Assembly (NCBI GenBank): GCA_965368975.1
Contig: CBDUPA010000007.1
Coordinates: 64,001 to 128,000 of the forward strand
Source of the DNA: an uncultured bacterium
GTDB taxonomy: Bacteria; Acidobacteriota; Thermoanaerobaculia; Multivoradales; JAHZIX01
Direction of reading: 5' to 3'
DNA: 64,000 nucleotides
Notes under the pieces: model-generated
The model's input: the letters and a program-made list of their open reading frames with translations, nothing else
Database searches by the model: none
What the model was told of the DNA's origin: nothing
Translations under genes and position numbers: made by a program
Shown here: in pieces, positions 1,485 through 52,045 of the stretch
How positions within the stretch are numbered: position 1 is the stretch's first letter
How the letters are laid out: the number at the start of each line of letters is the position of its first letter

Positions 1485-1654
1485 GTGTGTTCAAATTGTA
1501 GGCAAGCTGCCGATGGCCGGAGGGATAGCATTTGCTTGCTTCATGATGGCCATCCGAGTTTTTCGCAGGAGTGCACGACAGGTTGAGGGAGAAAATGGCT
1601 GTGCGATCTCCTGAGCAAGTTCAGTATTGGAGATGATGGACTCGTTGTGGTGAT

Positions 1655-2365
1655 GTGATGTCGACAACTTGGAGCAGAGATCGTCTAATCTTGGCAGTTG
1701 CGGTTATTGCCTTAGTGCCGGCTTTCGGGCAGTGGCTTTTCCCTCTGATCGGGGCGAGTGATCCCGCTGCTGAGTCTGTAAAGCTACCTCCTCAACACTC
1801 GGCTTTGGTCAGTGTCAACTTCAAGGCAGGCGGAAGTCTGTTTAGTAGAGGTATTGATGCGTATGTCGATGGGATCAAGGTCGCAGGTGGTGGTGGTCAA
1901 CTGAAGTTCAGGTTGGAGCCCGGAGCATACGGATTTTATGCGCGAAGTGGAGACAAGGAAAGTAATGTTCTTTTGTTGAGCCTGGAGGAGCGGGACATTC
2001 TGAATGTAGAATGTTTTTATCCGGAGCAAATGGATCGACCCTTGCTCTGTGATTTCCGGGAATCTCCTCAGCTCGCTAGGATCTCGGTGATCAGGAAGGA
2101 CCAATTCTATGGCAGCCTAAGAGATTTTATTGTGAGTGTTGATGGGGTCGAGAAGTTTGCCCTCAGTGTGGGTGAGAGAAGAGTGATCTATGCGGAGTCC
2201 GGGGCCTCCAGGCTTGTTGTTGCCGCTGTCTTGCTGGGCGACTCTATTGTGAGTAACGAGCTGCGGCTTGATCTTCCTTTGGGTTCTTTTGTTGAGGTTG
2301 AGTGTTCCTCAGAGATGGGAATGTGGACTGGAAAAGTCCGGTGTGAGATTCAAGACAATGTCTAG
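1655..2365 (+). CDS. Hypothetical membrane-anchored/exported protein with two beta-rich (PEGA-like) segments
   Basis: 236-aa ORF with N-terminal hydrophobic helix and two similar segments (YVDGIKV / VSVDGVEK); lower GC than flanks. Confidence 0.55.
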   Translation: MMSTTWSRDRLILAVAVIALVPAFGQWLFPLIGASDPAAESVKLPPQHSALVSVNFKAGGSLFSRGIDAYVDGIKVAGGGGQLKFRLEPGAYGFYARSGDKESNVLLLSLEERDILNVECFYPEQMDRPLLCDFRESPQLARISVIRKDQFYGSLRDFIVSVDGVEKFALSVGERRVIYAESGASRLVVAAVLLGDSIVSNELRLDLPLGSFVEVECSSEMGMWTGKVRCEIQDNV

Positions 2366-2740
2366 CTAAAGTTGTTCGCGGCACTGTTGTGTGCATTGCC
2401 GCCTATCGCGGGCAAGAAGGCCTTCGGTGATTTGTGATCACAGTAAACAGTCCTCTGAGTCTCTTCCTCCCACGGCAAGTGATCGGACGCCAGGCTATTG
2501 GTTTGCCGGTTGGAACGGCCGTCGGACGAGGCTGCGGTGGTGTTCTTGACGGCGGAAAGCTAGACTGCCTGCACGCCAGGGGCCAGGAAGGTTGATCTCA
2601 ACTTGAGGGACTTGACATCAAGCAGGTCGACCACGCCGCGTGTCAGCCAGGTAGTACAGCCTGTTTCAGATAGCGATGCAAGCTGAAGATGCCTGGCGCG
2701 GAATCGCCTCTCAGCCCTCAACCAAGAAAGGCAGTTCATT

Positions 2741-3904
2741 ATGGCCCTGTACTTCGATCCTCCGGGCAGTGCGTTCTCCTCCAACATGCTCGCTCTCGGT
2801 TTCATTACAAACTTTCAGGGCGAATATGTCGTGACGCCGGACACGATTGATGGCTTTCCTGTCAGTAAGGTTCAGTATCAGTCCAACTCGACCAGCTTCG
2901 GACCTACCCGCATCAAGGCCATCTCGAATGTGTTGCCAGATGTGATTGTGCTCAGTGCGCAGAACAGTGATTTTGTGCTGCCTGGCGGCACACCGATCAC
3001 AGCGGTTGCGGGAGCCGTACTGCTGGATTCCTTCGGCCAGATCCTGGTATGGGATCAAGGTAACTGCAATGGCCAGGGATATCACGTTTTCGACACGGCT
3101 GGCGGGCCCATCGAACAGGAGACTTACCTCACCGTCTTTCATGAACTGTCGCATGCGTACCACAACGCATTGGGCAGTTCGCCGGCGGATCTCGTCGCGT
3201 CGGAGCTCTTGGCCATCCAGGAGACCAACCTGCTGCGCAGCCAGTTGGGATTGCCACTTCGCGACCCCACCAACCACGGCGGCGGATGTGGTCCCGGGCC
3301 GTCCGAGCCCTGGTGGAAGAAGTTCTTGAGCGAACTGGTCGAGTCGTTGGGGGTCTTTCTGGGCGGTGGGTCCGCGCCGGCGGGTGTTCCCAAGCTGAAG
3401 TCGGCCGAGGGCTTGCTGCGTGCGGAGCTGACGGCTAGCTCCGCCGCATTCGATCAAGGCGCTGATCGCTGGAAGGAGTCTCTGCAGCAGCCCGTGGTCG
3501 CCGGCTTGCGGTGCTTCTACAAGGCGGCAGCCATGGTGCTCGATCGCTCGCTGGATCACCCGCAACAAGCAAAGAGGATGATCGCTATTCTCTCGGAATT
3601 GTCGAGGAAAGATGTGCATCGTCGAGCTGCCAATCTTCTGTTGCCTCGTCGAGTAGGGCCCACGAGCGGAGCTGACGGCAGTGCTCTGGAACTGTTCGCC
3701 AGTGAGCCGTACCAGATGATCTGGCGGGCCTATGATCAGCTCTTTGGGAACGGCAAAGCGGTTTCCGAAGTGACCCGGAGCTTCAAGCGCGCTGTCGAGT
3801 CCTGGACCGCTTCGCTACGGCCGTCCGAACGCGAGCTGCCGGAGCGCCCGCAGCGCAGCACCTTGTTGAACGTTCCGACGTTGGTGCATCGGACCTTCCC
3901 GTAG
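2741..3904 (+). CDS. HExxH zinc metallopeptidase-like protein (M91/NleD-like signature) with C-terminal extension
   Basis: TVFHELSHAYH followed by ELLAIQETNLLRSQLGLPLR; purine-rich RBS AAGAAAGG upstream of the ATG. Confidence 0.65.
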   Translation: MALYFDPPGSAFSSNMLALGFITNFQGEYVVTPDTIDGFPVSKVQYQSNSTSFGPTRIKAISNVLPDVIVLSAQNSDFVLPGGTPITAVAGAVLLDSFGQILVWDQGNCNGQGYHVFDTAGGPIEQETYLTVFHELSHAYHNALGSSPADLVASELLAIQETNLLRSQLGLPLRDPTNHGGGCGPGPSEPWWKKFLSELVESLGVFLGGGSAPAGVPKLKSAEGLLRAELTASSAAFDQGADRWKESLQQPVVAGLRCFYKAAAMVLDRSLDHPQQAKRMIAILSELSRKDVHRRAANLLLPRRVGPTSGADGSALELFASEPYQMIWRAYDQLFGNGKAVSEVTRSFKRAVESWTASLRPSERELPERPQRSTLLNVPTLVHRTFP

Positions 3905-3972
3905 GAGGCGCGCCGACCGTGGGCGGAGTCGCTGGAGGGGGATCAGGTGACGGATGTAGAATCACTGCTGAA

Positions 3973-4737
3973 ATGGGCGACAACCTCTACTTCCAGCTGA
4001 CCCAAGAGTTCAACGCTGCGGGGACGATTGCCGTCCTCGCATCCGGCCAGGCAGTGGTGTACTACCGCTTGGCGATCATGAGCAAGGATGGCGACTGGAT
4101 CCTGCGAGAGACACCAGAGGCTTGTAGCCGGGTTCTGGAAGTTCTCGGAGGCTATGGTGCCAGCTATCGTGCGGGTGCACCGCTCGACGTTCGATGGCTG
4201 GCAGCTGGCTGGTCTAGTCACTTCGAGTTCCGAGATGCAAGGAATCGCCGAATTCGTTGCGACTTCTTCACGCGTCCGCCGCGCATACCGGCATCCGACT
4301 TGGAGCCTTTGTTTCGAAGATCTGCAGATCTTCCGGTGGTCGATGTGGAGTCTCTGGTGCGGATGAAGCAGACGCAACGAGCCAAAGACTACCCTGTGAT
4401 AGGGGAGCTGTCGCGGCTGCTGCCGCCGGAGCGGGAGATCGAGTTAACGACCAACCCTGATCGGATCTTGGACCTAGCGGCAGAGTATGGCTCCGACTCG
4501 CGGCGCCCCTGTGTCCAGGCTGCGCGCAGTGGGCAGGGGAGACGGACGGTTGTCCTAGAGTTGGCAGTCGAGGTCGACGAGCAGCAGCAAGAAGATCGCC
4601 GTCGCGTGAAGCGCTATGCTGCGGCGTCACAGAACTACATGCGAGAGATGCGCCGGCTGGATGATCTGCGCCTTCCACAAGCGCACGAGGCCCTCTGTCG
4701 TTTGGCGGAACGGGTGCTGCCAACTGAGATGGAGTGA
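3973..4737 (+). CDS. Nucleotidyltransferase-fold hypothetical protein (possible toxin)
   Basis: SGQAVVYY...SKDGDWIL resembles the G-G-x-A-V...T-x-D-x-D NTase motif; later LVRMKQTQRAKD. Confidence 0.5.
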   Translation: MGDNLYFQLTQEFNAAGTIAVLASGQAVVYYRLAIMSKDGDWILRETPEACSRVLEVLGGYGASYRAGAPLDVRWLAAGWSSHFEFRDARNRRIRCDFFTRPPRIPASDLEPLFRRSADLPVVDVESLVRMKQTQRAKDYPVIGELSRLLPPEREIELTTNPDRILDLAAEYGSDSRRPCVQAARSGQGRRTVVLELAVEVDEQQQEDRRRVKRYAAASQNYMREMRRLDDLRLPQAHEALCRLAERVLPTEME

Positions 4738-4746
4738 GGTGTCGCG

Positions 4747-4935
4747 ATGGAAATGCTCAGCGAGGATGATCTCAACCTCAAGGATATGACAGACGAGGAA
4801 CTAGGGAAGGCTTGGGATCTCTGGTTCGACCTGGCACAAGCAACCAACGACCATGACCCGCCGTACACGCACGGAGTCTTCGTCAATCTGACCTGGGAGG
4901 ACGTACGCGGGGAGACGGACGAAACTGAAAGCTAG
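4747..4935 (+). CDS. Small acidic hypothetical protein, probable partner of the upstream NTase-like gene
   Basis: 62-aa ORF, GAGGTG RBS, starts 9 bp after the upstream stop. Confidence 0.55.
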   Translation: MEMLSEDDLNLKDMTDEELGKAWDLWFDLAQATNDHDPPYTHGVFVNLTWEDVRGETDETES

Positions 4936-6446
4936 GTCGTAGCCCCCAGCAACCCCGGCAACACCATCCCCGCGACGGTCACCAGCAGCCAGAAGATCAG
5001 GTTCAACACCAGTCCCGCCCGCGCCATCTGCGGGATGGTGATCCGGTCACTGCCATAGACGATGGCGTTGGGCGGTGTCGCGACGGGCAGCATGAAGGCA
5101 CAGCTGGCGGCGAGCGTTGCTGGCACCAGCAGAGTCAAGGGGGCGATTCCGATTCCTACCGCGACGGAGCCGAGGATCGGTAGGAAGGCGGCGGCGGTGG
5201 CGGTATTGCTGGTCAACTCAGTAAGGAAGATGACCAGAATCACCACCAGCAACGTGAGTAGCAGCGGGGGCCAACCACCGACAGACTCGACGCCTCCGCC
5301 GATCCAGGTGGCGAGGCTGGTTTCTGGGGTGGGGTAGTTCTGGATCGCGGAGGCCAAGCTGAGGCCACCGCCGAAGAGCAGGAGTACCCCCCAAGGTAGG
5401 CGTTGGGCGGCTTGCCAGTCGAGCAATTTCTCCGGCGAGGCTCCGTCGGCTGGCGAGCTGCCGGACGGCACCAGGAAGAGCAGGATAGCGCTGAAGAGGG
5501 CGATACCGGGGTCCGAGAGGCCGGGCAGAATCGCGACCAGTTGTGGTCGGGTGATCCAGAGTGCAGCAGTGATGCCGAAGATCACCGCCACGCGCTTCTC
5601 GGCGGGGGGCATCGGGCCGAGATCGCGCAGTTGCTGGCGTACGACCTCGGTTCCCCCGGGGATGTCCTCGACTTGCAGAGGATAGATCCAGCGCACCAGG
5701 ACCCACCAGATGATCGTCAGGCCCACGATGACCAGAGGCAGGCCCATCAGCATCCATTCGACGAAGCCGATCTCGACGCCGAAGGTCTGGAGCATGTAGG
5801 CGGCGAGCAGGGCGTTGGTGGGCGTACCGATCAAGGTACCGAGGCCGCCGACGCTGCAGCCGTAGGCGATGCCGAGCAGCACACAGAGGGTGAAGTGTGG
5901 GCTGCGATCGGGTTGTTGAGCATCGACGACGGCGCCGGTACGCCATTTCACCTGTCCATCCTCGATCAGATCCGCGATCGACAGGCCGATGGGGAGCATT
6001 AGCATGGCCGTGGCGGTATTGCTGATCCACATGCTGAGCAGCGCCGAGGAAAGGATCAACCCGGCAACGATGCGTGGCGGACGGGTACCGAGCGCGGTGA
6101 TCAGGGTCAGCGCCAGGCGTCGATGCAGTTGCCACTTTTCGAGACCGAGGGCGAGCAGGAAGCCGCCAAGCAGCAGAAAGATCAATGGGTTGGCGTAGGG
6201 AGCCGCAGCGGCGCGAGCGTCGGTGACGCCGAGGAGGGGGAAGAGCAGCGGTGGTAGCAGAGCCGTGACGGGGATGGGCAATGCCTCGGTCATCCACCAC
6301 ACGGCCATCAGCAGCGCGACGGCGGCGGCACGCCAGGCCGCGGGGTCGAGACCGCTGGGAGCGGGCAGTGCGAGCAGCAGCAGAAAGAGGGCTGCGCCGG
6401 CGAGCAGACCGATCGGTAGCTTCTTGGTTGCAACATCGTGGGGCAT
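4932..6446 (-). CDS. DASS/SLC13 family Na+:dicarboxylate/sulfate symporter
   Basis: Many TM helices; motifs WWMTEALP, SMWISNTAT, GTLIGTPTN, TELTSNTA, FMLPVATPPNAIV. Start placed at MPHDV. Confidence 0.93.
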   Translation of the reverse strand: MPHDVATKKLPIGLLAGAALFLLLLALPAPSGLDPAAWRAAAVALLMAVWWMTEALPIPVTALLPPLLFPLLGVTDARAAAAPYANPLIFLLLGGFLLALGLEKWQLHRRLALTLITALGTRPPRIVAGLILSSALLSMWISNTATAMLMLPIGLSIADLIEDGQVKWRTGAVVDAQQPDRSPHFTLCVLLGIAYGCSVGGLGTLIGTPTNALLAAYMLQTFGVEIGFVEWMLMGLPLVIVGLTIIWWVLVRWIYPLQVEDIPGGTEVVRQQLRDLGPMPPAEKRVAVIFGITAALWITRPQLVAILPGLSDPGIALFSAILLFLVPSGSSPADGASPEKLLDWQAAQRLPWGVLLLFGGGLSLASAIQNYPTPETSLATWIGGGVESVGGWPPLLLTLLVVILVIFLTELTSNTATAAAFLPILGSVAVGIGIAPLTLLVPATLAASCAFMLPVATPPNAIVYGSDRITIPQMARAGLVLNLIFWLLVTVAGMVLPGLLGATT

Positions 6447-9400: not shown

Positions 9401-12400
9401 ATTCCGGGCGGCGCCTGTACCGCAGCGGCGACCTGGCGCGCACCTGCGTCGACGGTGACTTGGAGTACCTCGGTCGCATCGATCACCAGGTGAAGGTGCG
9501 TGGCTACCGCATCGAGTTGGGCGAGGTCGAGGCGGCGCTCGACGGACATCCGTCGGTGCGCCGTGCTGTGGCCGAGGTGCGCAAGGGCGCGGCCGGTGAC
9601 GGGGGCCGCTTGATCGCCTGGTTGCAGGTCGAGGGTGCTGGTGACGGCGCAGTCGACACCCCGAGCCTGGGCCAGCAGCTGGGGCAGTGGCTGGCCGAGC
9701 GCCTGCCCGAGCACCAGGTACCGTCCCTGCTGCTACCGGTCGACGAGCTCCCGCTCACCACCCACGGCAAAATCGACCGTCGTACCCTGGCGCGGCGTCC
9801 TTTGCCCGACGTCTCGACGGGCGCTGTCTACCGACCTCCGCTGACCGCGGTCGAGAGAACGCTGTGCGACATCTTCACCCAGGTTCTCGACGTACCGCGC
9901 GTCGGTCTGGACGATGGTTTCTTCGACCTCGGTGGCGACTCGCTGCTGAGCATTCGCGTCGTCGGCCTGGCGCGCGATGCCGGCGTGATGCTCGAACTCA
10001 CTGACTTACTGCGGCACCCGACCGTCGGCGCGCTGGCTAGTTTTCTCGCTGCACGTGAAGAGGGGCCGAGCGACGATGTGGAGCAGTACGCAGCGACGCA
10101 GCCCTTCGCCCTGGTTGATGCCGAAGACCGCGCCCGGCTGCCCGCGGACGTCGAAGACGCGTATCCGCTGGCCCGGTTGCAGGCTGGCATGCTTTTCCAC
10201 ATGGCGCTCACCGACGACGAGCCGCCCTACCACAACCTCGACAGCTACCGCCTGCGCGGCCCCTTCGATCCTGACGCTTTCCGCCGTGCCGTCCTCTGCG
10301 TCGTGGCTCAGCAGCCGGCGCTGCGTACCTCCTTCGATCTCGAGCACTACCGCCAGCCCTTGCAGCTGGTGCACGAGGAAGTGGACCCGGACCACGCCTA
10401 CCAGCTCATCGACCTGCGGCACCTGCCCGCAGCCGAGCGTGAGGCCACCGTCGACACTTTCCTGGAGCACCACCGCTCGCGTCCGCTGCCGCTCGACCAG
10501 CCACCGTTGGTGCGTTTCGTGGTGCACTGGTTGGAGCAGGAGGCGGACCGGAGTACTTTCGAGCTGAGCGTGATCGAAAATCACGCCATCTTCGACGGCT
10601 GGAGCCTGCACGTCACCCTGGACGATATCTTTGCCGAGGCGTTCACTTCGACGCCCACGGAGGCAGCCGCCAGTAAGCTATCGCCCGCGGAGCCATCGGC
10701 TGCGGCGGCCGTGACGTATCGAGATTTCGTCGTGCTCGAACGCGCGGCCGAGGCGTCCACGTCCAACCGCGCCTTCTGGCAGCGGATCGTCGAGGATGCA
10801 CCGTTCCTCGAAGTCCCGCGCTGGCCGCTCCCGCCGCGCGGCGAAGACCAGCTGCGCGTGCCCAACGTCACCGTGCCGCTGTCGCCGACCGCCGCCGAGG
10901 CCCAGCAGGCCGCGTCGAAGGTGCTCGGCGTACCAGTCAAGAGCGTCGCCCTGGCCGCCTATCTGGCGGCGCTGGCGCTGTGGACGGGCAGCGACGATAT
11001 CGTTACCAGCTTCACCGCCAACGGCCGCCCCGAGGTACCGGGTGGTGACCAGGTGCGCGGTCTCTTCCTCAACTCCTTGCCGCTGCGCCTGCACAAGCCA
11101 CGCGCCGGCAGCTGGGCCGACCTGATCCGGCGCGCTCGCGACGCCGAACTCGAACTACTGCCGCACCGCCGTTACCCGCTGGCCACCCTGCTGCGCGAGC
11201 TCAACACGGATCGTTCCTCGGGACGCGCGATCGGACGCTCCGCGGGCAGCGGCGCTCAGACCCAGCTGTTCGAGGTTGCCTTCAACTTCGTCCATTTCCA
11301 CGTCGTCGACGCCCTGCTCGACTCACGGCTGGAAGTGTTGGAGACCCGTATCCACGACGTCGACAGCACGACCCTCGTGTGCACGTCCGGCCGCCAGCCC
11401 GGCAGCGGCGAGCCCTACCTGCAGTTCGCTTGGGATGCCGACGAGGTCGGCCGCGCACAGGTGCGGCGTCTGGCCGAGTTGTTCGAGCGAGTCTATGAAG
11501 CGATGGCCGACCTGGAGCGGCCGGTGGCGTCGACGTCGGTGCTGAGCCGGGCGGAGCGGCACCAGATCGTGGTGGAGTGGAACGCGACCCCCGACCGTGA
11601 GCCATTCCTGGATCGGCACATGGACCTCCCCCTACCCAGATGGGAAAGCGACAGTCTGCACGCCCGCATCTTGCATTGGGTCCGGAACACCCCGGACGCC
11701 GTTGCCACGATCGAATCCACCGACGCGATCGACCAGGTGCTGACCTACGGTGAGTTGGGCCACCGCTCCGCCCGCCTGGCGTCGCACCTGCGCGCGCGCG
11801 GCCTGGCACCCGAGACCCGTGTCGGGATCTTCCTGGAGCGCAGCCTCGATGTTCCGGTCGCGCTGCTCGGTGTGCTGCGCGCAGGTGGGGCCTACCTGCC
11901 GCTCGATCCCACCTTTCCCGCCGAGCGTCTGGCCTGGCTGCTGGAAGACAGCGGCGCTCCGTTCGTGGTCACATCCGCCGAGCTTCGCTCGCGCTTGCCG
12001 CAAGCACCGGCGGAGGAGGCAGAGGTCGAGGTGGTCGTGCTGGACGAGGTCGAAGCCTTCGCGGATCCGGTCGCGGATCCCACGGCGGCGGCTCTCACAG
12101 TCGGCCTGAGCGATCCACGGCAACTGGTCTACGTCATCCACACCTCCGGCTCCACCGGCCGTCCCAAAGGTGTGTGCGCCCACCATGCCGGTGTGCTGGC
12201 GTTGCTCGATACCTACCGCACGCCGCTGATCGCTGCCGGAGCGCGTGCCAGTTGGTGGACGCGGCTAGTCTTCGACGTCTCCGTTTCCGAGATCTTTTTC
12301 CCCCTCACCAACGGCGTCGCGCTCGAGATTGCCCCGGAACGCCTGCGCGCTGACGCCTCCGGCTTCCTCGACTGGCAGGCCGAACGTCGGATCGATGGTG

Positions 12401-13635
12401 CCTACGTGCCCGCCTTCCACCTGGCGGAACTGGAGCGTCGCGCCCGCGAGCCGTCCGCCAGCAACCTGCCCCCGCTGGTGCACCTGGAAGTCGGCGTCGA
12501 ACCGATCGCCGCCGAGCGGCTGCTCACCATCGCGCGCGGCCTGGCTCGGCGCAGTGGCGTCGAGATCGACCTGAACAACGGCTATGGCCCCACCGAAGTC
12601 ACGGACTGCAGCCTCGCCAAGTTCGTGCGCCTCTGGCACTATCAGCATACGCCCCCCCTGCGCGGTCGCACCCCTATTGGTCGCAACCTGCTCGGCGGCC
12701 GCGTCTACCTTCTCGACGCTCGTGGTGATCTGGTGTTGCCTGGCGTTCCTGGAGAGATTCATCTCGGCGGTGCCGGCGTCACCCGTGGCTACCTCGATCG
12801 CCCGGCGCTCACCGCCGCTGCCTTCGTTCCCGATCCCTTCGCCGATGAACACGCTGCCGGGGGAGTGCAGGGCCGTCGACCCGGTGCCCGCATCTACCGC
12901 TCCGGCGACCTCGGCAGGTACGCGCCGGATGGCGATATCGAGTTCCTCGGTCGTCGCGACCACCAGTTCAAGATTCGCGGCTACCGTGTCGAGCCCGGAG
13001 AAGTCGAAGCTGTCGTCGAAGCCACCCCCGATGTCGAGGCCGCTGCCGTCATCGTCCACGATAGCGGCGCTTCCGTCGGCCTGCGCCTGGTGGCCTACAT
13101 CGTTCCAGCCGTCGACCTGTTCGACGAAGCTGACGAGGACAAGTGGCTCAAAGACGTGCAGCGTCAACTCGGCCGTCAGCTGCCCGAATATATGGTGCCG
13201 TCCCTCTTCGTCTTGCTCGACGCTCTACCGCGCAATTCGAGCGGCAAGCTGAACCGTCAAGCCCTACCGTCGCCGGATGATGTCGGTCAGGTCGCCACCC
13301 AGTACGTGGCGCCGCGGACGGCCGTCGAAGACGTCCTGACGCGCATGTGGGGTGAGCTGCTGGGTGTCGAGAAGGTCGGCGTCGACGACGACTTTTTCGA
13401 CCTCGGCGGCCATTCTCTGGTGGCCACCCAGCTGGTGTCGCGCATCCGCGATATCTTCGACCTGGACGTACCCCTGATCGAATTCTTCGAGCTGCGCACC
13501 GTCGCCGATCTCGCCGCCGCGCTGGTTTCGGCGGACGAGGATTCTGAGTACGCCGAGAAGGCCGCCCGCGCCTGGTTGCGGTTGCAGCAGCTGAGCCCGG
13601 CGGAGCGGGCCGCGCTGCTGGCGTCGAGGGAGTGA
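6466..13635 (+). CDS. Bimodular NRPS, C-A(Thr)-T-C*-A(unknown)-T, no thioesterase
   Basis: C1 HHIVVD; A-domain motifs YTSGSTGQPKG, YGITE, YRSGD; T1 GGDSL; C2 ENHAIFDG; A2 HTSGSTGRPKG, YGPTE; T2 GGHSL. Start 6466 or 6514. Confidence 0.96.
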   Translation: MSTPGSSDPLPDVTAGMTPDLAPDLEKRLARLTPAQRALYLKRMQRKNLDAEALARRSAERARGAASAGSEQAALAATPIPRRARAEPGVEAEGWPLSLDQERIYFIHHLNPDSPFYNIIGAGRFRGRLRLDVLERAINEVVRRHETLRTRFEVRGGAPVQIVEPRLRMRIPLIDLRGLSASDARSTADVWVSRCLGTAFRLDRLPLGLSVMLQVGDEEFVWPMVYHHIVVDWVSWSLFQREIVLLYEYFARVAAEQGPSSASELSPLPELPIQYADFAVWQRRQLDAGVLASQFDYWREALRGAPEETTLPLDHPRPPMQRGDGRRRFRDLPAEASRRFRELMRHQGVTPFMAFLALFKVLVLRLTGQRRLILGSPTTARNHPDLEALIGYLLYQLPFYTDLSGDPDFEEVLRRVRTSTLGAFDHGDTPFSKLIELVDPERDPRRTPLTQLVLLFLDPDGLNTQLATPALPGVESLPYDFDGESSKFDATFVVWDRPVYHLWIEYDNDLFDATTIDRFARLFGTLLTGVTDDPRRPVRELPLLDVVEVHQLVVERNDVPTPVESGTVESGTEERVRAEPLPGLSLPRRFELWAERQPDAVALLHRRHHLSYGELLRRSAAVASRLRVQGAGVETLVALSFAPSVELFIGQVGILRSGAAYVPVDPVYPEERRRYLVADSGVEVVVDAGWMEQVMGIEKQVGAVNAEATTRPGHPHGGAPTQSSVPVPGRGGPMWPPSEIRGDSTAYVIYTSGSTGQPKGVAMSHHGIARLFDATAGWFDFGPGDVWALFHSFAFDFSVWEIWGALACGGRLVILSEADRRQPARLARWLAEQQVTVLNQTPSAFRGLIPEIWQNTGEDTVDSSLRGVIFGGEALDPQILRECVRRDATAFVNMYGITETAVHTTYRRIRAADTARSSSRIGVPLPDLQLYVLDRWVGLLPLGVPGELVVGGDGLARGYLRRPSLTAQRFIPDPFSRRNSGRRLYRSGDLARTCVDGDLEYLGRIDHQVKVRGYRIELGEVEAALDGHPSVRRAVAEVRKGAAGDGGRLIAWLQVEGAGDGAVDTPSLGQQLGQWLAERLPEHQVPSLLLPVDELPLTTHGKIDRRTLARRPLPDVSTGAVYRPPLTAVERTLCDIFTQVLDVPRVGLDDGFFDLGGDSLLSIRVVGLARDAGVMLELTDLLRHPTVGALASFLAAREEGPSDDVEQYAATQPFALVDAEDRARLPADVEDAYPLARLQAGMLFHMALTDDEPPYHNLDSYRLRGPFDPDAFRRAVLCVVAQQPALRTSFDLEHYRQPLQLVHEEVDPDHAYQLIDLRHLPAAEREATVDTFLEHHRSRPLPLDQPPLVRFVVHWLEQEADRSTFELSVIENHAIFDGWSLHVTLDDIFAEAFTSTPTEAAASKLSPAEPSAAAAVTYRDFVVLERAAEASTSNRAFWQRIVEDAPFLEVPRWPLPPRGEDQLRVPNVTVPLSPTAAEAQQAASKVLGVPVKSVALAAYLAALALWTGSDDIVTSFTANGRPEVPGGDQVRGLFLNSLPLRLHKPRAGSWADLIRRARDAELELLPHRRYPLATLLRELNTDRSSGRAIGRSAGSGAQTQLFEVAFNFVHFHVVDALLDSRLEVLETRIHDVDSTTLVCTSGRQPGSGEPYLQFAWDADEVGRAQVRRLAELFERVYEAMADLERPVASTSVLSRAERHQIVVEWNATPDREPFLDRHMDLPLPRWESDSLHARILHWVRNTPDAVATIESTDAIDQVLTYGELGHRSARLASHLRARGLAPETRVGIFLERSLDVPVALLGVLRAGGAYLPLDPTFPAERLAWLLEDSGAPFVVTSAELRSRLPQAPAEEAEVEVVVLDEVEAFADPVADPTAAALTVGLSDPRQLVYVIHTSGSTGRPKGVCAHHAGVLALLDTYRTPLIAAGARASWWTRLVFDVSVSEIFFPLTNGVALEIAPERLRADASGFLDWQAERRIDGAYVPAFHLAELERRAREPSASNLPPLVHLEVGVEPIAAERLLTIARGLARRSGVEIDLNNGYGPTEVTDCSLAKFVRLWHYQHTPPLRGRTPIGRNLLGGRVYLLDARGDLVLPGVPGEIHLGGAGVTRGYLDRPALTAAAFVPDPFADEHAAGGVQGRRPGARIYRSGDLGRYAPDGDIEFLGRRDHQFKIRGYRVEPGEVEAVVEATPDVEAAAVIVHDSGASVGLRLVAYIVPAVDLFDEADEDKWLKDVQRQLGRQLPEYMVPSLFVLLDALPRNSSGKLNRQALPSPDDVGQVATQYVAPRTAVEDVLTRMWGELLGVEKVGVDDDFFDLGGHSLVATQLVSRIRDIFDLDVPLIEFFELRTVADLAAALVSADEDSEYAEKAARAWLRLQQLSPAERAALLASRE
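8152..8181 (+). repeat. 15-bp tandem duplication (GTGGAGTCAGGTACG x2) encoding VESGT-VESGT in the C-A linker
   Basis: Read directly from sequence. Confidence 0.85.
8601..8677. repeat. Pair of GTAG-type REP palindromes embedded in frame in the NRPS A1 domain
   Basis: 8601-8632 is the exact reverse complement of 56799-56830; 8649-8677 matches the reverse complement of 56877-56905 at 28/29. Confidence 0.9.
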
Positions 13636-13676
13636 AGACGGAGGAGCTGCTAGAATCCAGACAGCAAGGAGGCGAG

Positions 13677-13883
13677 ATGAGTACAGCAACGGCTCAGCAG
13701 TTTGTTGCCGATGACTCTGGGAATCGGGTGGGCGTCATCTTGGACATGGTCAGCTACTCGGCACTTGTCGAGGCGGCCGAGGAACTGGAGGCTATCCGAG
13801 CGTATGACGACGCCAAAGCCGCTGGCGATGAGATGATCCCGTTTGAGCAAGCTATACGAGAAATCGAGGAGCGGCGAGGCTAG
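13677..13883 (+). CDS. Small antitoxin-like protein upstream of a RelE/ParE-family gene
   Basis: AGGAGG RBS; QFVADDSGNRVGVILD...EELEAIRAYDDAKA...IPFEQAIREIE is typical of small addiction-module antidotes. Confidence 0.75.
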   Translation: MSTATAQQFVADDSGNRVGVILDMVSYSALVEAAEELEAIRAYDDAKAAGDEMIPFEQAIREIEERRG

Positions 13884-44957: not shown

Positions 44958-45193
44958 GGGATCTCCCGGGGGTGGGGGTGCGCGGTGGTTGTGTCAGGTG
45001 GATTGTATGACGAAGCGGGGTGTGCTGCGCCCGTAATCATTGGGTGGACTAGAATCATGTCTCTCACCCTGAGAATGATATCTATGAGGCAGCAATCGTG
45101 TTTCCTCGATGGCAACGGTCCGAATTATGACGTCATGGGATGTTTCGGACAGTGTTCTCAAGTTCCCTATGAAAATGGTGTCAGGAGGTTTAA

Positions 45194-46225
45194 GTGATGG
45201 AGCTGCAGATGGCGATTGAAAAATTCATGCATGGCTACTTTTCGACTTGCAGTAGGAGTGACAAGACAATTCGGGCCTATTCAGTCGATTTGCGACAGTT
45301 CATGGAGTTTCGTAATCCAACTACTGTACTGGAGGGTATTTGCTCTGGGGATCTAGAAGACTGGGCCTCCAGCCTGAAAGCAGAAGGATATTCTCCTGCA
45401 TCTATCCGGAGGAAGTTTGCTACGGTTAGGGTATTCTTCAGGTACTGGTTCCGAAAGAGGCAGCTCACAACCTCGCCATGTGTGGGCATTCGTTTAGATT
45501 TGGGGCGAAGAGTGAAGCTGCCGTCAGCTGTTTCCTATGAGTTTCTCTGCGATCTACTAGGCGTTGCCCGAGCTAGCGTCGTCGACACTGAGCTGGAGCA
45601 CCACTCTGGTAGGAGACTGTTCTTGGCAAAAAGAGATCTGTTGATAGTTGAGATTCTGGTAGCAACAGGTATTCGGATTGGTGAGTTAGCCAACATTTTG
45701 GTGGGGGATGTATCGACCCGAGACTTCTCTATAATTATCAATGGAAAAGGAGGACGGCAGCGAAAGGCGCTGTTGGTTAGAGCGCATTCCCGGGCGGCAT
45801 TGTTAGACTATTTGAGCTCAATAGATATGAACTCTGCAGGCCCGCTTTTCCTGAACCACCGAGGTGACGCACTTTCTTCTCAAGGAGCTGCTCAAGTTGT
45901 GACTCGCTTGTCCAGTCGATTGGGAGCAGGGAAGAGGATCACTCCTCATGTGATAAGGCACTCAATTGCGACGATTTTGCTGAGTCGGGGGGCGGATGTG
46001 CGAGTGATTCAGGTTTTTCTTGGGCACTCTTCAATTTTAACTACAGAAAAGTATCTGCATGTGAGTACAGGAGAGCTAGCCAAGCAGCTGGCGAAATATC
46101 AGCCAGAGTTTCCAGTGGATACGACACCGATAACTAGAAATTATCAACTCTGGAGTGTGTCGAGCCATGGATGTAGAGACAGAACTGGGACTGCAGCGAA
46201 TAGTGTTGATTGCCGACTGTGTTGA
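45194..46225 (+). CDS. Tyrosine recombinase/integrase (XerC/D-like)
   Basis: N-terminal SAM-like domain (SDKTIRAYSVDL); catalytic R (TGIRIGEL), K (GKGGRQR), HxxR (HVIRHS), H (LGHSS), Y (TEKY); AGGAGG RBS. Confidence 0.95.
   Translation: MMELQMAIEKFMHGYFSTCSRSDKTIRAYSVDLRQFMEFRNPTTVLEGICSGDLEDWASSLKAEGYSPASIRRKFATVRVFFRYWFRKRQLTTSPCVGIRLDLGRRVKLPSAVSYEFLCDLLGVARASVVDTELEHHSGRRLFLAKRDLLIVEILVATGIRIGELANILVGDVSTRDFSIIINGKGGRQRKALLVRAHSRAALLDYLSSIDMNSAGPLFLNHRGDALSSQGAAQVVTRLSSRLGAGKRITPHVIRHSIATILLSRGADVRVIQVFLGHSSILTTEKYLHVSTGELAKQLAKYQPEFPVDTTPITRNYQLWSVSSHGCRDRTGTAANSVDCRLC
46129..46145 (+). repeat. Left putative recombination site GATAA-CTAGAAA-TTATC, inside the 3' end of the recombinase gene
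   Basis: 5-bp inverted arms around an asymmetric 7-bp spacer; exact reverse complement of 51795-51811. Confidence 0.85.
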
Positions 46226-47177
46226 AGTTGAGCCTGACCAGACTTCAAGTTTCTCGTCAGCCCTAGATCAGACAAGGTTGAGCGAGAATCTTGAGCTAAA
46301 GGAGGGATTGGAGGAACTTGGCGCGGATGTCATCGTAATCGAGGACCCAGGAGATTTTGCGCTCGCGCTTGACCAGTTTTCTGACTGGCTAGTTTTCCCG
46401 AACTGGATGGGAGAGCGATCGAGAAGTCGTGCAGGTCTGATACCGGCTATCTGTGAGGCAACGGGTACAAGGTATGTGGGAGCTGACGCCTACACGAGGA
46501 TCGTTTGCGGGGACAAGGTGCTGTCTAGAGTTCTGGCGAAGCAAGCTGGCTTCACTCTCCCAAAGCACTGCGTCTGCGCCTTGGGTATGACGATTGGGCC
46601 TTTATTTGACATCGAGCCACCGTATGTAGTGAAACCTTCTAGGCAGAATAGCTCGATTGGCATATCCACGAGAAGTCTCTGCTCTTCGGAGGAGTCTTGC
46701 AGAGAAGTGGTCGCAACTCTTCAGGAAGAGTTTCAGGAGCCCATACTGGTTGAGAAGTTCATTCCAGGGAAGGAGGTCAGTATAAGCATGACTGGGAATC
46801 CTTCGGGCACCACTTCGCTCGCTGCTTGTGAGCGTTACGTCATCGATGATGAGTTGTACTTTGAGTCAGCTTTGTTCTCGCTTGAGCTGAAGAAGTATAA
46901 GATGTTGGAAACTAGACTTAAGCCCAGGCCAGATCTATTGACTCCAGACACTGTCGCAGCGTGTGAGCGACTATTCCGCCTTCTAGGGTGCCCATCAATT
47001 CTGAGAATTGATGGCAGAGCGCCAACCGCGGATCAGTTAACTTTAATCGAAATATCTCCCAATCCGCTCATGACCATGAGTTCTGAGTATCTCGGTGCCT
47101 TCCTTCTCGACGGGAGAGCTCGCATTGATATCCTGCACGAGATCCTCTCTAATTCTCTGACCCGGTGGAGGCGCTGA
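46167..47177 (+). CDS. D-Ala-D-Ala ligase-like ATP-grasp enzyme
   Basis: YVGAD...CGDK, PYVVKPSRQNSSIGI, ILVEKFIPGKEV, LRIDGR, LIEISPNP. Confidence 0.85.
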   Translation: MDVETELGLQRIVLIADCVEVEPDQTSSFSSALDQTRLSENLELKEGLEELGADVIVIEDPGDFALALDQFSDWLVFPNWMGERSRSRAGLIPAICEATGTRYVGADAYTRIVCGDKVLSRVLAKQAGFTLPKHCVCALGMTIGPLFDIEPPYVVKPSRQNSSIGISTRSLCSSEESCREVVATLQEEFQEPILVEKFIPGKEVSISMTGNPSGTTSLAACERYVIDDELYFESALFSLELKKYKMLETRLKPRPDLLTPDTVAACERLFRLLGCPSILRIDGRAPTADQLTLIEISPNPLMTMSSEYLGAFLLDGRARIDILHEILSNSLTRWRR

Positions 47178-48679
47178 TGTGCGGAATTGCGGCCGTTTAT
47201 CCATCATGCAGGGAACTGATAGATGAGGTGCTCCCGCGACTTCGGGAGCGTGGCCCTGATCAGGACGCTGTATCTGATACAACTTTGGCTTCTCTTGGAG
47301 CCTCACGGTTAAAAATTACGGATATGGAAAGGGGAGATCAACCACTAGTAACTAGCTCGGGTAGCACGGTTATTATCTTCAATGGTGCCATTTATAATGC
47401 TTTCTATTTGAGGGAGGCTTTTAATCTTCAGACCCTGACTCAAAATGACGCCGAGGTAGTCGCTTGCTTGTATGAGGTGCTCGGAGATGAAGTAGTGAAC
47501 TACTTGGATGGTATGTATGCATTTATCATAGCTGATCTCAGGAGACAGCGGCTTGTTGCTGCAAATGATTCTTTTGGTATTAAACCCTTGCATTGGGCCC
47601 GGGCGGAGGGGCATCTGCTGTTCTCAAGTACTGTTAGCTCGTTGCCAGTCAATTTTCAGAAGACTGTAAGGCGCTTCCCTTCTGGTGTGCTTTGGGCGTC
47701 AGATGGCACAGTACGCAAGGTGGTGCCGTACCATGGCCAGAGTTGTGGTGAGCTAGTCGAAGAACTGCGACGAGCAGTTCGGTCGCAAGTACCAGCGGAG
47801 GTACCTTGGGGTTGCATGTTGAGTGGCGGTGTCGATAGTGCTTTGGTGACAGCAATGTGCACAGAGTTGCGAGGCTCCTCTGTGATTGCGTATACCGCTG
47901 GGACGCTGAAGAGCGATGACTTCAACGTAGCACGCAGGTTTGCGAAGTTTGTTGACTTGGATCATCGCCCTATTGTGATTGATCGTATGATGGTTGAGCA
48001 GGCAGTGGTTCAAGTCATAGAGGCCACTGCCAACTACGATCCACTAACTGTAATGAGTGGAGTTGGTACCCTACTCGTAGCGGATCAAGCGCGGCGAGAT
48101 GGCGTTAAGGTTCTGCTCTCGGGAGAGGGTGCTGATGAACTCTTTGGTGGCTACGATGTATATCAGAAGATTCCTACTAGAGATCTGAATAGTACTCTCT
48201 TGAGAGATCAGAGCGAGTTGGGAGCTACGGAGTGTCTTAGACTTGATCGTTGCACCGGCGCGTGTGGCATTGAGGCTCGCGTTCCATTCCTTTCTGCCGG
48301 AGTTGTTCAACTGTCTCGATCAATTGGTCCCCTAGATAAGATCTTGCCTACTGCGGATCGGCGGACCTTCAACAAAATTGCTTTGCGACGAGCCGCAGAA
48401 CTGTGTCTGCCCAACTGGGTTGCACACAGAGAGAAGGTGCCGTTCTTCGAAGGAGCAGGTCTATCGGGAATGGTTGCCGAGGTTGCTGAAAGTTGGCTTG
48501 AAAGAAGCAGCATTTCTAGATCTCAGGATGAACTCCGATGCTTTGGAGTTCACTCAACTGTGGCGAGATATCTCTTTGAACTCTGGTTCGAGAGGTTCGG
48601 GGAGATCACGACGAGTTTCGAAGACTTATGTATCCGTGGTCTAACGAGGAGGAATTACTTTCGGCCGAATGGCTTATGA
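47177..48679 (+). CDS. Asparagine synthase (AsnB)-like Ntn glutamine amidotransferase
   Basis: N-terminal MCGI, RGPD, FNGAIYN, DSFGIKPL, LSGGVDS, LSGEGADELFGGY, EARVPFL; TGATG overlap with the ATP-grasp stop. Confidence 0.9.
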   Translation: MCGIAAVYPSCRELIDEVLPRLRERGPDQDAVSDTTLASLGASRLKITDMERGDQPLVTSSGSTVIIFNGAIYNAFYLREAFNLQTLTQNDAEVVACLYEVLGDEVVNYLDGMYAFIIADLRRQRLVAANDSFGIKPLHWARAEGHLLFSSTVSSLPVNFQKTVRRFPSGVLWASDGTVRKVVPYHGQSCGELVEELRRAVRSQVPAEVPWGCMLSGGVDSALVTAMCTELRGSSVIAYTAGTLKSDDFNVARRFAKFVDLDHRPIVIDRMMVEQAVVQVIEATANYDPLTVMSGVGTLLVADQARRDGVKVLLSGEGADELFGGYDVYQKIPTRDLNSTLLRDQSELGATECLRLDRCTGACGIEARVPFLSAGVVQLSRSIGPLDKILPTADRRTFNKIALRRAAELCLPNWVAHREKVPFFEGAGLSGMVAEVAESWLERSSISRSQDELRCFGVHSTVARYLFELWFERFGEITTSFEDLCIRGLTRRNYFRPNGL

Positions 48680-51600
48680 AGGCGGGGGCGTCAGGCCGAT
48701 TGTCCAATAGCAGAGAAATGTAGGCTCAAACTGCGCAGGTACTTCATGGTGATAGCTGCTGTTGACGAAGTTATCTGAGTACAAGCGGTCATTCCATTCT
48801 TGTGACCAGAAGTTGATATCGATCTGCTGAGCGGCTCGCAGATTCTTCGCGGCCACTGCCTTGCTGTTCCTGAGTGAATAATATAAATAAAGATTATAAT
48901 GAGCGATGCGTCGAATTTCGAGGTCTTGTGGGTCTCTATCTGCCAAGATTCGCTCGATTACTGCCACCATTTCAGTCGCAGCTCTGTATCTCTCGCTTAT
49001 AGTGAAGAGGATTAGAGAATTCATGCTGATAATCAGGCGTGAGAACATGTCGGTTGCCGTCCGTCGAGCAGAGCGAAGCAGCGCTATTGCAGACTCTGGC
49101 TCTGATCCCATGTAGATAGCAATGGCTGCACGATTATTAAGAATGCAGTGTTCTTCGGATGGCAGCTCTTTCATGAGTCGCTCTGCTGTGTCTAGCTCGG
49201 CAAGGGCTTCTTGATGTTTGCCCATCTTGGATAGCTGTAGTGTTATGGAGACTCGGGTTCTGGCTTCTTCAAGTTGATCGCCGAGCTCATGGAAGATTTG
49301 AATGCTCTGACGCATGCATTCCGTAATCTCAGCATTACACCTTGTTGTGAGCTGCGCATTGCGTAGAAGGTGGGCATAGCTCCTGCAGTGGTGTATTCGA
49401 GGGTCTTCTCTGAGTTCCTTGAACAGGTCATCACAGTCAGCGTGGCTGTTTGTGCAACGGTACGCTGACAGAACAACGAGTTTGAGCCGGAGGTATAACT
49501 CTGGATCGTCTTCGATCTTGGGGAGATAGAGATCACAGAACTCGATGGCTTCTTGATGCCTGTGATCCCATACCAACAGGGCTGCGCGGTATTCTAGATA
49601 CCAGGAGGCTCTCAATTTGTCGAGGTCTGTGGCTACTCGCAGAGCCTCTTGGTATTGTCCAGCCATGAAATAAAGATATATGCAGAGACGATCCAGAGTT
49701 GTTTTCTGGTTCTCGGTTGCGGTCTGATAGGCGGTGTTACGGATCTTCTCGAGGTAAGTACAAAGTTGCCGAATAGAACGGTTAGCTAGTGCAAGTCTTG
49801 TGAGTTCATTAAGCAGCGGCAGAGCACGATATTCCTGGCCTAGGTTCATCAAGCAGACTAGAAGCATGACGATCTTGTCGGCGCGAGTTTGAAAAGAGAA
49901 CCTCTCTTCTTGCAGTTCTTGTTCGTAGATCTTCTTCCAGTGATCAAATGCAATTATTAGGTGACGGGAGAAGTCGTCACTGTCACGAGCATGCTGTAAG
50001 AGTTGATCTTGTGCAATCGAAACCTCAGTTCCATCATCAGACACAAGCCTCCGCTTCTGAAGTGTCAGAATTGTATCTTCTACATCTAGAATCTCGACCG
50101 CAGTACCTTCTAGGTCTTCGTATAGGGTGTTTAGGTGAGACCAAGGTACGATGCCACCGTGTGAGACAATCAAGGCGAATAAGAACTTTTGCTGCTCTGA
50201 TAGCGTAGTGAGGTTATCAAGAGTGATTGCCTCGAAGGATTGTTCGGCAAGTCCACGGACGTAGTCTGTATCGGGCGCGCCTCGCAGCTCTAAGGCAACT
50301 TCGAGATCTATGAATGGCCTCAGGTTTCCCTCTGACTCCTGATAAGATCTTCGCACGAACAAGTCGATGGCACCTTCCCTCTTGCGGAGGATTTTCATCG
50401 CGTGATCCACCTGGAGCTTGCCGAGCTTGAGCGTTTGCACTATTACTGAGGCGACCGCGAAGGCTGATTCTAACTGTGTTAAATCCCAGCCATTCGGATC
50501 ATCTTCTGTCAGCTCTAATAGAAGATAGATTCCTCTAGGAGATTGGAGGAGCCGTGAAAAGAAATCAAGTGAGTAGTCATCTAGGTTCTGTGCGTTCTCC
50601 ACGCAGATGACCATCGGGAGTTTACCGGAGCAATGCAGAATGTAACTCTCAAGAAGGGGGAGATCACGTTCTCCAAGTCTGGCAAGTTCATGCCAGAAGG
50701 TGGAGGGCGTAAACTCTGCGGGCTGAGGGAAATCCTGTCGCTGCGAGAGTCTTCTACTTGCGATGTGTGACTGAAAGGAAGGAATCTGTCCAGGAAAAGT
50801 TGCGGCCGAGAGGTGAATTCGGTGTGCGAGAACACGCATGTAGAAAGATTCTTCCCGGTAGTCCCGGGCATGCTGCGGGATTGCCAATCGAACATAGAGT
50901 TGCTGAGGTGAATGTTGGCGATTCTTGAGTTCGCTAAAAACCCTCTCTGTTAGCGCACTCTTACCCACGCCGCTCGGAGCATGTAGAAGCAGAGCTTTGT
51001 TTTGGTATTCTGTAGCGAGTATATCTGTGCACAAGGCTGAGATCTCTGCTGACCGATTTACGAAGTGTGATGCTTTAACTGAAGCAGGCACCTGCCGTTG
51101 GTCGACATCTTTGGGTAAATACGTGAACTCGCGATATTCATCATGGTCCCGAGGGGCTTGATCCGACTTATCTAAGTCACTTGAAGCGAGAACTTCATCC
51201 GCATGAACCGGTCCGGTGTCGAATCGCCTCTGGAATAGAACTGGTGTATGTTGTGCCGGTGAGTGCTCCATATGCAGTGCATTACAGGCGATACTGTAAG
51301 AGTCTGGAATGCTCTCGCCTGCACCGACAGCATCATAGAATGCAACGGAGAAGGTTATTGCAGCAGAGTCCGGAATCTCTTTGCCCATTCCGATGACAAA
51401 ATCTACATGTTTCGCTAGATACTCTGCCTGAATGCGAGAGAAGCAAGCGTTGAGGAGAATGCACTGGATTGATTTAGAAGTGATTCTAAAAAAATGGCCT
51501 AGAGCGTGATTATCTACAGGACGAGAGTGCCCTTTACCGTCGAGAAGATGTAACCCTCCTTTGCCAGAACCGTGGCCAGAGAAATGGATGAAATGAGGAC

Positions 51601-51790
51601 GGAACCTCAGGACTAGCCGCCGAAGGTCCCTTATTTGTGTGGCTGGGTGATGCTCGATAATAAACGAGTGCTGACTAGCGGAAAGGCCGGTTCGGATCTC
51701 TTCAGCTTCCTGAGCAAGTTGAAGACTCGCAGAATCTATTGCATTTGCTGCGAGGATTAGGAGGCGCCGAGATTCTGCGGGCCCGTTCAC
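48674..51790 (-). CDS. CHAT (caspase-like) protease - STAND/AAA NTPase - helical/TPR-like repeat protein
   Basis: CHAT dyad HFSGHG and LLNACFS; Walker A HAPSGVGKS; Walker B-like ICVENAQ; long helical C-terminus. Confidence 0.85.
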   Translation of the reverse strand: MNGPAESRRLLILAANAIDSASLQLAQEAEEIRTGLSASQHSFIIEHHPATQIRDLRRLVLRFRPHFIHFSGHGSGKGGLHLLDGKGHSRPVDNHALGHFFRITSKSIQCILLNACFSRIQAEYLAKHVDFVIGMGKEIPDSAAITFSVAFYDAVGAGESIPDSYSIACNALHMEHSPAQHTPVLFQRRFDTGPVHADEVLASSDLDKSDQAPRDHDEYREFTYLPKDVDQRQVPASVKASHFVNRSAEISALCTDILATEYQNKALLLHAPSGVGKSALTERVFSELKNRQHSPQQLYVRLAIPQHARDYREESFYMRVLAHRIHLSAATFPGQIPSFQSHIASRRLSQRQDFPQPAEFTPSTFWHELARLGERDLPLLESYILHCSGKLPMVICVENAQNLDDYSLDFFSRLLQSPRGIYLLLELTEDDPNGWDLTQLESAFAVASVIVQTLKLGKLQVDHAMKILRKREGAIDLFVRRSYQESEGNLRPFIDLEVALELRGAPDTDYVRGLAEQSFEAITLDNLTTLSEQQKFLFALIVSHGGIVPWSHLNTLYEDLEGTAVEILDVEDTILTLQKRRLVSDDGTEVSIAQDQLLQHARDSDDFSRHLIIAFDHWKKIYEQELQEERFSFQTRADKIVMLLVCLMNLGQEYRALPLLNELTRLALANRSIRQLCTYLEKIRNTAYQTATENQKTTLDRLCIYLYFMAGQYQEALRVATDLDKLRASWYLEYRAALLVWDHRHQEAIEFCDLYLPKIEDDPELYLRLKLVVLSAYRCTNSHADCDDLFKELREDPRIHHCRSYAHLLRNAQLTTRCNAEITECMRQSIQIFHELGDQLEEARTRVSITLQLSKMGKHQEALAELDTAERLMKELPSEEHCILNNRAAIAIYMGSEPESAIALLRSARRTATDMFSRLIISMNSLILFTISERYRAATEMVAVIERILADRDPQDLEIRRIAHYNLYLYYSLRNSKAVAAKNLRAAQQIDINFWSQEWNDRLYSDNFVNSSYHHEVPAQFEPTFLCYWTIGLTPPPS

Positions 51791-51794
51791 TATC

Positions 51795-51811
51795 GATAAT
51801 TTCTAGTTATC
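51795..51811 (-). repeat. Right putative recombination site (GATAACTAGAAATTATC on minus strand), 4 bp upstream of the CHAT-STAND start
   Basis: 17/17 identity with 46129-46145 in inverted orientation. Confidence 0.85.
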
Positions 51812-51824
51812 ATTGCTGCCTGGT

Positions 51825-51854
51825 AGGCTAGCATGGTGGTAATGGGTAGTGCAA
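51825..51854 (-). promoter_or_regulatory. Candidate sigma-70 promoter outside the right site, pointing into the cassette
   Basis: Minus strand TTGCAC-N18-TAGCCT with extended -10 TG. Confidence 0.4.
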
Positions 51855-52045
51855 CTGCGGATTTGCCACAGGTTCTTTACTTCCTTTTCCTGCAGAGAAA
51901 TTTTGTCCCAGGCGGTTCAAGATTCCCAGCCACCAGGCATCCTTTGAGTTGCCGCTAACGTATCCTAAATTCGACCCCTGTCGCGACGCCCACCCGCGTC
52001 GCGACACCAACCAAGGCTGGCCACCACCGTCTAGGAGCCGACCCG

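Follow-up and report, generated by a model that had tools for sequence, protein, structure and literature searches.

A Xer-like recombinase and two identical inverted 17-bp sites as a probable inversion switch for a CHAT-STAND gene and an enzyme module in an acidobacterial island

This report concerns an island of about 6.9 kb (about 45000-51930) of an uncultured bacterium of the Thermoanaerobaculia (Acidobacteriota; assembly GCA_965368975.1). The island lies in a window of 64,000 nucleotides, which is the whole stretch of DNA analysed (contig CBDUPA010000007.1, positions 64,001 to 128,000 of the forward strand; coordinates are counted from the first letter of the window). The best explanation of its organisation, to which a probability of roughly 70% is given, is that the recombinase of the island inverts a 5.7-kb segment, by which expression would be re-partitioned between two cassettes: an immune-type sensor/effector (the CHAT-STAND protein) and an enzyme module. 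The Xer-like recombinase would act on two identical inverted 17-bp core sites (GATAAY-N5-RTTATC) bounding the segment. The cassettes start 4-21 nt inside these sites, so that every expression signal would have to be supplied by the site or by DNA beyond the segment, and inversion would exchange the cassette behind the recombinase gene with the cassette facing the outer flank. The site would be a common 5' leader, the purine-rich spacer being the Shine-Dalgarno (SD) element in compact relatives; in the window the CHAT-STAND start would use an overlap with the stop of an upstream open reading frame (ORF), a mini-ORF in the present state and the recombinase after the flip. The features concerned are the following.

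45194-46225, + strand: Xer-like tyrosine recombinase (Pfam Phage_integrase 9e-31, Phage_int_SAM_1 3.8e-13).
46129-46145, + strand: left crossover site GATAACTAGAAATTATC, inside the recombinase ORF (codons P311-Y317).
46146-46225, + strand: read-through tail of the recombinase, 26 codons and stop, inside the invertible segment and overlapping the ATP-grasp start.
46167-47177, + strand: cassette 1, gene 1, ATP-grasp ligase, D-Ala-D-Ala ligase-like (Pfam Dala_Dala_lig_C 3.7e-15).
47165-48679, + strand: cassette 1, gene 2, asparagine-synthase-like glutamine amidotransferase (Pfam Asn_synthase 1.1e-52, GATase_7 6.4e-30).
48674-51790, - strand: cassette 2, CHAT protease domain, STAND-type NTPase (AAA_16) and TPR, 1038 aa, with its GTG 4 nt past the right site.
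51795-51811, - strand: right crossover site, identical to the left one in inverted orientation (17/17 nt complementary).
ATG 51813 to TAG 51790, - strand: mini-ORF (MITRNYR-stop) spanning the right site.
51812-51930, - strand: outer right flank, still of island-like low G+C (from G+C steps).

The two copies of the 17-nt repeat are 100% complementary and are isolated in their surroundings. At up to 3 mismatches only these 2 matches are found in the window (0 in 100 shuffles), at up to 2 mismatches the same 2 copies are the only ones in the 7.1-Mb genome, and the genome has no further instance even of the degenerate motif GATAA-N7-TTATC. With a recombinase gene and an identical inverted pair of sites, the island has the parts of a site-specific inversion switch (an inverton in the wide sense). 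It had been claimed in a preliminary description of this DNA that the repeats are real crossover sites of an inversion system, and the claim is now supported by evidence from the whole family of such loci and by one natural pair of opposite orientation.

The recombinase belongs to the tyrosine recombinase superfamily (PF00589 at 107 bits against a cut-off of 27, PF02899 at 50 against 22) and its residues R147, K185, H252, R255, H278 and Y287 are invariant in 63 sequences. It stays below the equivalog cut-offs of XerC and XerD (TIGR02224, 191.1 against 335.15; TIGR02225, 190.7 against 329.6), below that of the integron integrases (TIGR02249, 74.9 against 265) and below that of the Fim-type invertase models (45 against 221). 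Other Xer-like genes of the same genome are 32-35% identical to it, and about 62 homologues are 36-48% identical. The present form counts 343 aa from the GTG at 45194; the ATG at 45197, standing behind AGGAGG, is the likelier start.

Related loci with Xer-like recombinases (80 genome and 80 metagenome loci, of which L149, a duplicate of L074, was dropped, leaving 159) carry the same kind of site. In the first 80 loci 82 exact GATAA-N7-TTATC motifs were counted, against 3.0 in shuffles. A census of pairs, permitting one arm mismatch and requiring exactly complementary spacers, yielded 42 inverted pairs in 38 of the 159 loci and 0 direct pairs, and shuffles gave 0 of either kind. A pyrimidine stands at position 6 and a purine at position 12 in 84 of 84 sites, and the family site is therefore written GATAAY-N5-RTTATC. 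A module of this family was defined by three features: a recombinase of the clade beside a site, an inverted partner site with complementary spacer at a distance of 1.8-7.4 kb, and convergent cargo genes that begin at the sites. The island of the window has all three. The family is spread over Bacillota, Bacteroidota, Acidobacteriota, Pseudomonadota, Actinomycetota and Campylobacterota; among the hosts given in the records are Lachnospiraceae with other Bacillota, Acidobacteriota, a member of the Bacteroidota (Maribellus), Betaproteobacteria, Massilia and Solirubrobacterales, and an Aliarcobacter plasmid is among the members. No description of the site or the module was found in the literature searched, including the portions available of PMC9881135, PMC7159879 and PMC11892184, whose supplementary tables may list such loci.

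Some members are more elaborate. One recombinase gene stands between two invertible segments in L026 (Roseburia faecis; 58-5107 and 10965-13310) and in L014 (3908-9542 and 12755-14589). Three nested inverted pairs (12860/18705, 12905/18660 and 12951/18614), about 45 nt apart and each with its own spacer, enclose a single segment in L054 (12860-18721), which looks like a multi-state leader arrangement.

Inversion has left a direct trace in one pair of relatives, L098 and L099, whose recombinase is 41% identical to that of the window. These two assemblies are 99.9% identical and colinear in their flanks, the 3.8 kb between the sites is reversed, and neighbouring pieces of the alignment share 32-34 nt at the sites. 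The orientation of the cargo towards the recombinase also differs among loci, the STAND gene being proximal in L017 and L051 and the GT2 gene in L041 and L066; among the loci with Thoeris genes, ThsA is proximal in L022 and L026 and ThsB in L040, L072 and L171. Contig ends fall within 70 nt of an exact site in 22 of 184 cases, against about 0.5% expected, and such breaks are the behaviour of assemblers that meet mixed orientations.

Of 40 segments, 36 are purely convergent, and 26 of the 36 have 3' ends that overlap or are separated by at most 30 nt, so that no space is left for a terminator between the facing genes. The first inward ORF, taken mechanically from the first ATG, GTG or TTG, begins no more than 10 nt from the site at 30 of 83 ends and no more than 30 nt from it at 52; as the cassette starts abut the sites, promoters must lie outside the segment. 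Low-GC loci often carry a near-consensus promoter on the far flank, 6-25 nt before the site (L026, L029, L038, L043, L049, L066, L072, L144 and L171), and a hairpin with a T run often follows the recombinase gene (L017, L038, L040, L043, L049 and L051). By analogy with these far-flank promoters, the outer right flank of the window (51812-51930) is a candidate expression flank reading into the segment. In compact members of higher GC the spacers CTAGGAG, CTAGGAA, CTGAGGA and CTAAGGA pair with the anti-SD sequence at -4 to -7 kcal/mol (SD-like spacers in L014, L015, L071, L098, L105 and L151, against +0.2 for the window), and a GTG or ATG comes 0-7 nt after such sites, at both ends; for compact members in general the start codon lies within 0-10 nt. 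To judge from these sequences, the site is a shared translation-initiation leader of both cassettes.

The cargo was surveyed by BLASTP clustering of 100 proteins from 39 segments, together with Pfam and PADLOC. Its recurring pairs are a STAND NTPase with GT2 (8 segments), ThsA (SIR2-STALD, PADLOC 1e-98) with the TIR protein ThsB (5 segments), STAND with a carbamoyltransferase (3-4 segments), an AAA_16 protein with GT4 (2 segments), an NB-ARC-like protein with an SHMT-like enzyme (2 segments), and UbiA with an uncharacterised protein; STAND with SHMT-like cargo is present in L071 and L119, and NACHT with a methyltransferase in L098. The STAND proteins carry various heads, namely CHAT in the window, SIR2 in L050 and Mrr in L164. 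An ATP-grasp protein faces an NTPase of 800-1038 aa in L056, L093, L142 and the window, and the ATP-grasp proteins of these loci cluster together by BLASTP. On the plasmid pACRY43158 (L173) the annotation gives an ATP-grasp and a YbaK/EbsC-family gene facing an 803-aa hypothetical protein, which places this member with the cargo type of the window. The Thoeris genes are convergent at opposite ends of their segments (L022, 10898-13102; L026; L040; L072; L171). In L012 (2319-9728) the STAND-type gene is broken into four ORFs of 139-359 aa that match intact proteins of 1009-1105 aa in L026 and L038, and this cassette is probably decayed.

In the window itself, the ATP-grasp ligase scores under every NCBIfam cut-off, and the amidotransferase reaches 285 against a cut-off of 267 in TIGR01536. 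The CHAT-STAND protein passes the Pfam cut-off for AAA_16 (37.9 against 32.6) and falls just under that for CHAT (22.9 against 24); in BLASTP it matches CHAT domains at 1e-44, and its CHAT domain is 37-47% identical to those of homologues. The 3' end of cassette 2 overlaps that of the convergent cassette 1 by 6 nt. None of the four island proteins matched any PADLOC family, the known anti-phage STAND families (Avs, bNACHT and others) included.

Several points weigh against the proposed switch. The inversion of the segment in the window is deduced by analogy, reversal having been seen only in the relatives L098 and L099. Some of the mechanically assigned starts may fall too near the site, and the promoters and terminators of the relatives are consensus matches only. 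A consensus scan identified no promoter in either flank of the window, and the 4 promoter-like and 6 terminator-like sites that it returned do not exceed shuffles. Thoeris defence requires both ThsA and ThsB, and a strict either/or switch is hard to reconcile with the 5 segments that hold one of these genes at each end. These loci speak for a swap of expression levels or for expression from both flanks; the former, or a phase with only one competent arrangement, is favoured.

It can be proposed more tentatively, at a little short of an even chance, that the loci form a cross-phylum class of invertible immune modules, in which a Xer-like recombinase flips a promoter-less convergent pair between a strong and a weak outside site, with the crossover site as shared ribosome-binding leader. 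The pair would consist of a sensor/effector (a STAND protein with a CHAT, SIR2 or Mrr head, or ThsA) and an enzyme, for which GT2 or GT4, carbamoyltransferase, ATP-grasp, SHMT-like enzyme, methyltransferase and the TIR protein ThsB are the proposed partners. The switch would set the stoichiometry or the phase of a two-part defence, and in the window it would in one of its states tie the translation of CHAT-STAND to that of the recombinase.

The same loci could be seen as a platform for cassette exchange, where a promoter-less module of two genes is swapped by double crossover with no danger of deletion, both flanks express it and inversion is a neutral side reaction. The modular cargo types recurring across phyla would fit such a platform, as would the Thoeris genes at opposite ends in five segments, and L015, L050 and L151 have one and the same site (GATAACTAGGAATTATC) around cargo that differs. 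This explanation is nevertheless regarded as unlikely. Spacers differ among nearly all low-GC loci, which blocks exchange, and they differ, as does the cargo, between the two segments of a single genome in L026 (STAND with carbamoyltransferase in one segment, Thoeris in the other) and in L014, where the difference would stop recombination between the segments. A promoter on the far flank and a terminator on the near flank suggest that the flanks are unequal, and a donor form carrying these sites was not encountered.

A further alternative, which was the reading of the preliminary description and is judged improbable, holds that the site was placed in the recombinase ORF by design, giving isoforms of 343 and 318 aa whose tails bias the direction of switching, and that CHAT-STAND is likewise coupled by design to whichever ORF crosses the site. 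The sequence facts on which it was built are correct. The 343-aa form reads through the site via PITRNY and continues for 26 codons over the ATP-grasp ATG at 46167. When the flip was made in silico by a script reversing the DNA between the two spacers, the tail was replaced by R-stop, which leaves a recombinase of 318 aa ending in PITRNYR, with the last base of its TAG shared with the first G of the CHAT-STAND GTG (TAGTG). In the present state the mini-ORF from the ATG at 51813 (MITRNYR) ends in the same overlap, and in the flipped state it becomes 32 aa long. An outer base pair would extend each palindrome after the flip, as had been noted. It had been argued from this that both orientations are functional; all genes are indeed intact either way.

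Several findings speak against the isoforms. Homologues are conserved as far as H303-P304 and then carry unrelated tails of about 5-45 residues, and conservation of the 26-aa tail beyond the site is found in 0 of 62. In the AlphaFold2 model made with the 63-sequence alignment (mean pLDDT 88.9) the last helix spans residues 292-302 and residues 320-343 fall below pLDDT 50; the folded core is thus predicted to end near residue 305 and the tail, lying beyond the last helix, to be disordered. Among the 51 loci with an exact 3' site the recombinase gene stops in the first bases of the site in 4, has the site within 30 nt in about 10, at 31-120 nt in 32 and at 121-400 nt in 5 (19 further loci have a site upstream of the gene). 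The 4 stops within the site and the 10 or so close to it show how near the two can come in compact relatives, which favours the isoforms to some extent, and yet true read-through is found in 0 of the 51. An apparent case in L151 was a tblastn artefact, the stop being 5 nt before the site. On pACRY43158 (9948-13784) the stop is 2 nt before the site, and the arm TTATG of the site ends in the start ATG. The mini-ORF is not recurrent in relatives and the outer palindrome pair is not consistent among them.

The tail can be accounted for otherwise. The site closes two of the three frames (by TAA in the arm, and by TAG in CTAG spacers), and the recombinase ORF of the window reads through because it enters the one frame left open. 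Five of the 62 homologues end in DN, which, as far as the proteins tell, would match GATAAC-TAG read in another frame. The tail being unconserved, without read-through counterparts and predicted disordered, the likeliest view is that it arose as a neutral consequence of how tightly this junction is packed, and the proposal that two tails bias the direction of switching finds no support.

The coupling of CHAT-STAND translation has fared better, also as a point for the isoform reading. The start of the gene is the GTG 4 nt past the right site, since alignments with homologous CHAT domains begin at residues 2-10 of the ORF and at residues 2-11 of proteins that carry CHAT at the N-terminus, and since the site contains an in-frame TAG five codons upstream; no alternative start with a ribosome-binding site of its own came to light. 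The automatic gene call (P0122, 904 aa) begins at M135 and cuts the CHAT domain, being 134 residues short because the true start is without SD sequence. As the preliminary description had observed, no ribosome-binding site is obvious there: the 22 nt upstream of the GTG pair with the anti-SD sequence at +0.2 kcal/mol, against -11.0 at the recombinase start and -6.8 at the ATP-grasp start, and the SD sequence of the mini-ORF is weak (-2.8). The window spacer CTAGAAA is one base away from CTAGGAA and has lost the pairing, so that the stop-start overlap would be a reasonable route to CHAT-STAND translation. In both states the GTG shares a base with the upstream stop and no SD sequence of its own is present, as is characteristic of translationally coupled pairs. 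Elsewhere in the island the GTG of the amidotransferase (AsnB) overlaps the ATP-grasp stop region by 13 nt (47165-47177), likewise without SD sequence (0.7 kcal/mol), and overlap coupling would therefore be used within the island too. It is consequently plausible from the sequence that CHAT-STAND is translated by termination-reinitiation after whichever ORF runs across the site. What stands of the earlier claim of built-in coupling is the TAGTG overlap and expression through the site as a trait of the family; against it, the mini-ORF does not recur in relatives, and the SD-like spacers of relatives offer a simpler route to translation.

With about 49% G+C, against about 65% for the genome, the island is taken to be horizontally acquired; its DNA was not found in the 40 relatives searched, apart from one 47-nt match at chance level. 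It might on these grounds be supposed that the recombinase is merely the integrase of the island and the repeat fortuitous or the ends of a mobile element, but this is very improbable, as different phyla share the motif and its pairs are inverted without exception, natural inversion exists (L098/L099), att-like direct repeats of at least 8 nt are absent at the island ends, and one arm lies inside the element beside the recombinase and not at an end.

Two further observations concern the surroundings of the sites. A promoter-like match (TTCACT-16-TATCAT, 51786-51813, + strand) spans the right site and reads outward to the YceI-like gene at 52046; inversion would alter the first of its two hexamers, and the count of such matches is not above that in shuffles. 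An imperfect inverted match of 15 nt, with 10 nt exact (AGGCAGCAAT), joins a region 100 nt upstream of the recombinase start (45082-45096) with the flank abutting the right site (51812-51826), and alignment of the flanks showed no further similarity between them.

Known inversion switches act on surface antigens, on tail fibres, on promoters and on genes of restriction specificity. The nearest described system found in full-text searches is the XerC of Ureaplasma parvum, which acts at short repeats of the mba and UU172 loci and by inverting them alternates two opposed genes (PMC3599477). A Xer-annotated tyrosine recombinase, short inverted repeats, two opposed genes and alternating expression are thus common to both in what that text describes, and the IRUU172 repeat as printed there has the same GATAA...TTATC pentamers as the window site. 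In the same text, however, the spacer is printed with 5-6 nt instead of 7, the cargo consists of surface antigens, and the repeat lies in the 5' coding region and gives chimeric proteins.

In the G segment of phage Mu with its invertase Gin (also in P1 with Cin and in e14/Qin with Pin), convergent alternatives are read from a fixed outside site. The invertible segment there adjoins the recombinase gene as in the window and holds two convergent alternative gene sets with an outside expression site, but Gin is a serine invertase needing an enhancer and Fis, a constant N-terminal part is fused to variable parts, and the cargo is tail-fibre genes. The fim-type promoter invertons (FimB/FimE) share a tyrosine recombinase beside an element with short inverted repeats; there, however, the promoter lies within a 0.3-kb element and the genes outside, whereas the segment of the window encloses the genes and leaves the signals outside it. 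The integron platform likewise joins a recombinase gene to an adjoining site that gives expression to promoter-less cargo, yet its attC sites are direct, act as folded single strands and excise or insert rather than invert, and the integrase score is far from the cut-off. Closest by NCBIfam score (191 bits) is XerC/XerD, the system that resolves chromosome dimers, whose dif site resembles the window site in its palindromic core around a spacer; the window differs in having one recombinase gene, inverted sites within an island and 6-bp arms, and in scoring well under the cut-offs. Mycoplasma Xer1 (vpma) and HvsR (vsa/hsd) are further switches named in the introduction of PMC3599477. In these, Xer-like recombinases also bring silent genes to a single expression site by inversion, but the process is a multi-gene shuffling of lipoprotein or hsdS genes at sites in 5' untranslated regions, with no pair of STAND protein and enzyme.

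In the present loci one conserved pair of recombinase and site is attached to whole immune-type gene pairs, the complete Thoeris system among them. The wider family is more interesting than the single island in the window. The 17-bp site, with its freely variable 5-nt centre and built-in ribosome-binding region, could serve as a small orthogonal tool for DNA inversion. Should the proposed switch operate, bacteria would phase-vary costly abortive-infection sensors, or re-balance them against the partner enzyme, and this would, if true, account for many of the "recombinases in defence islands".

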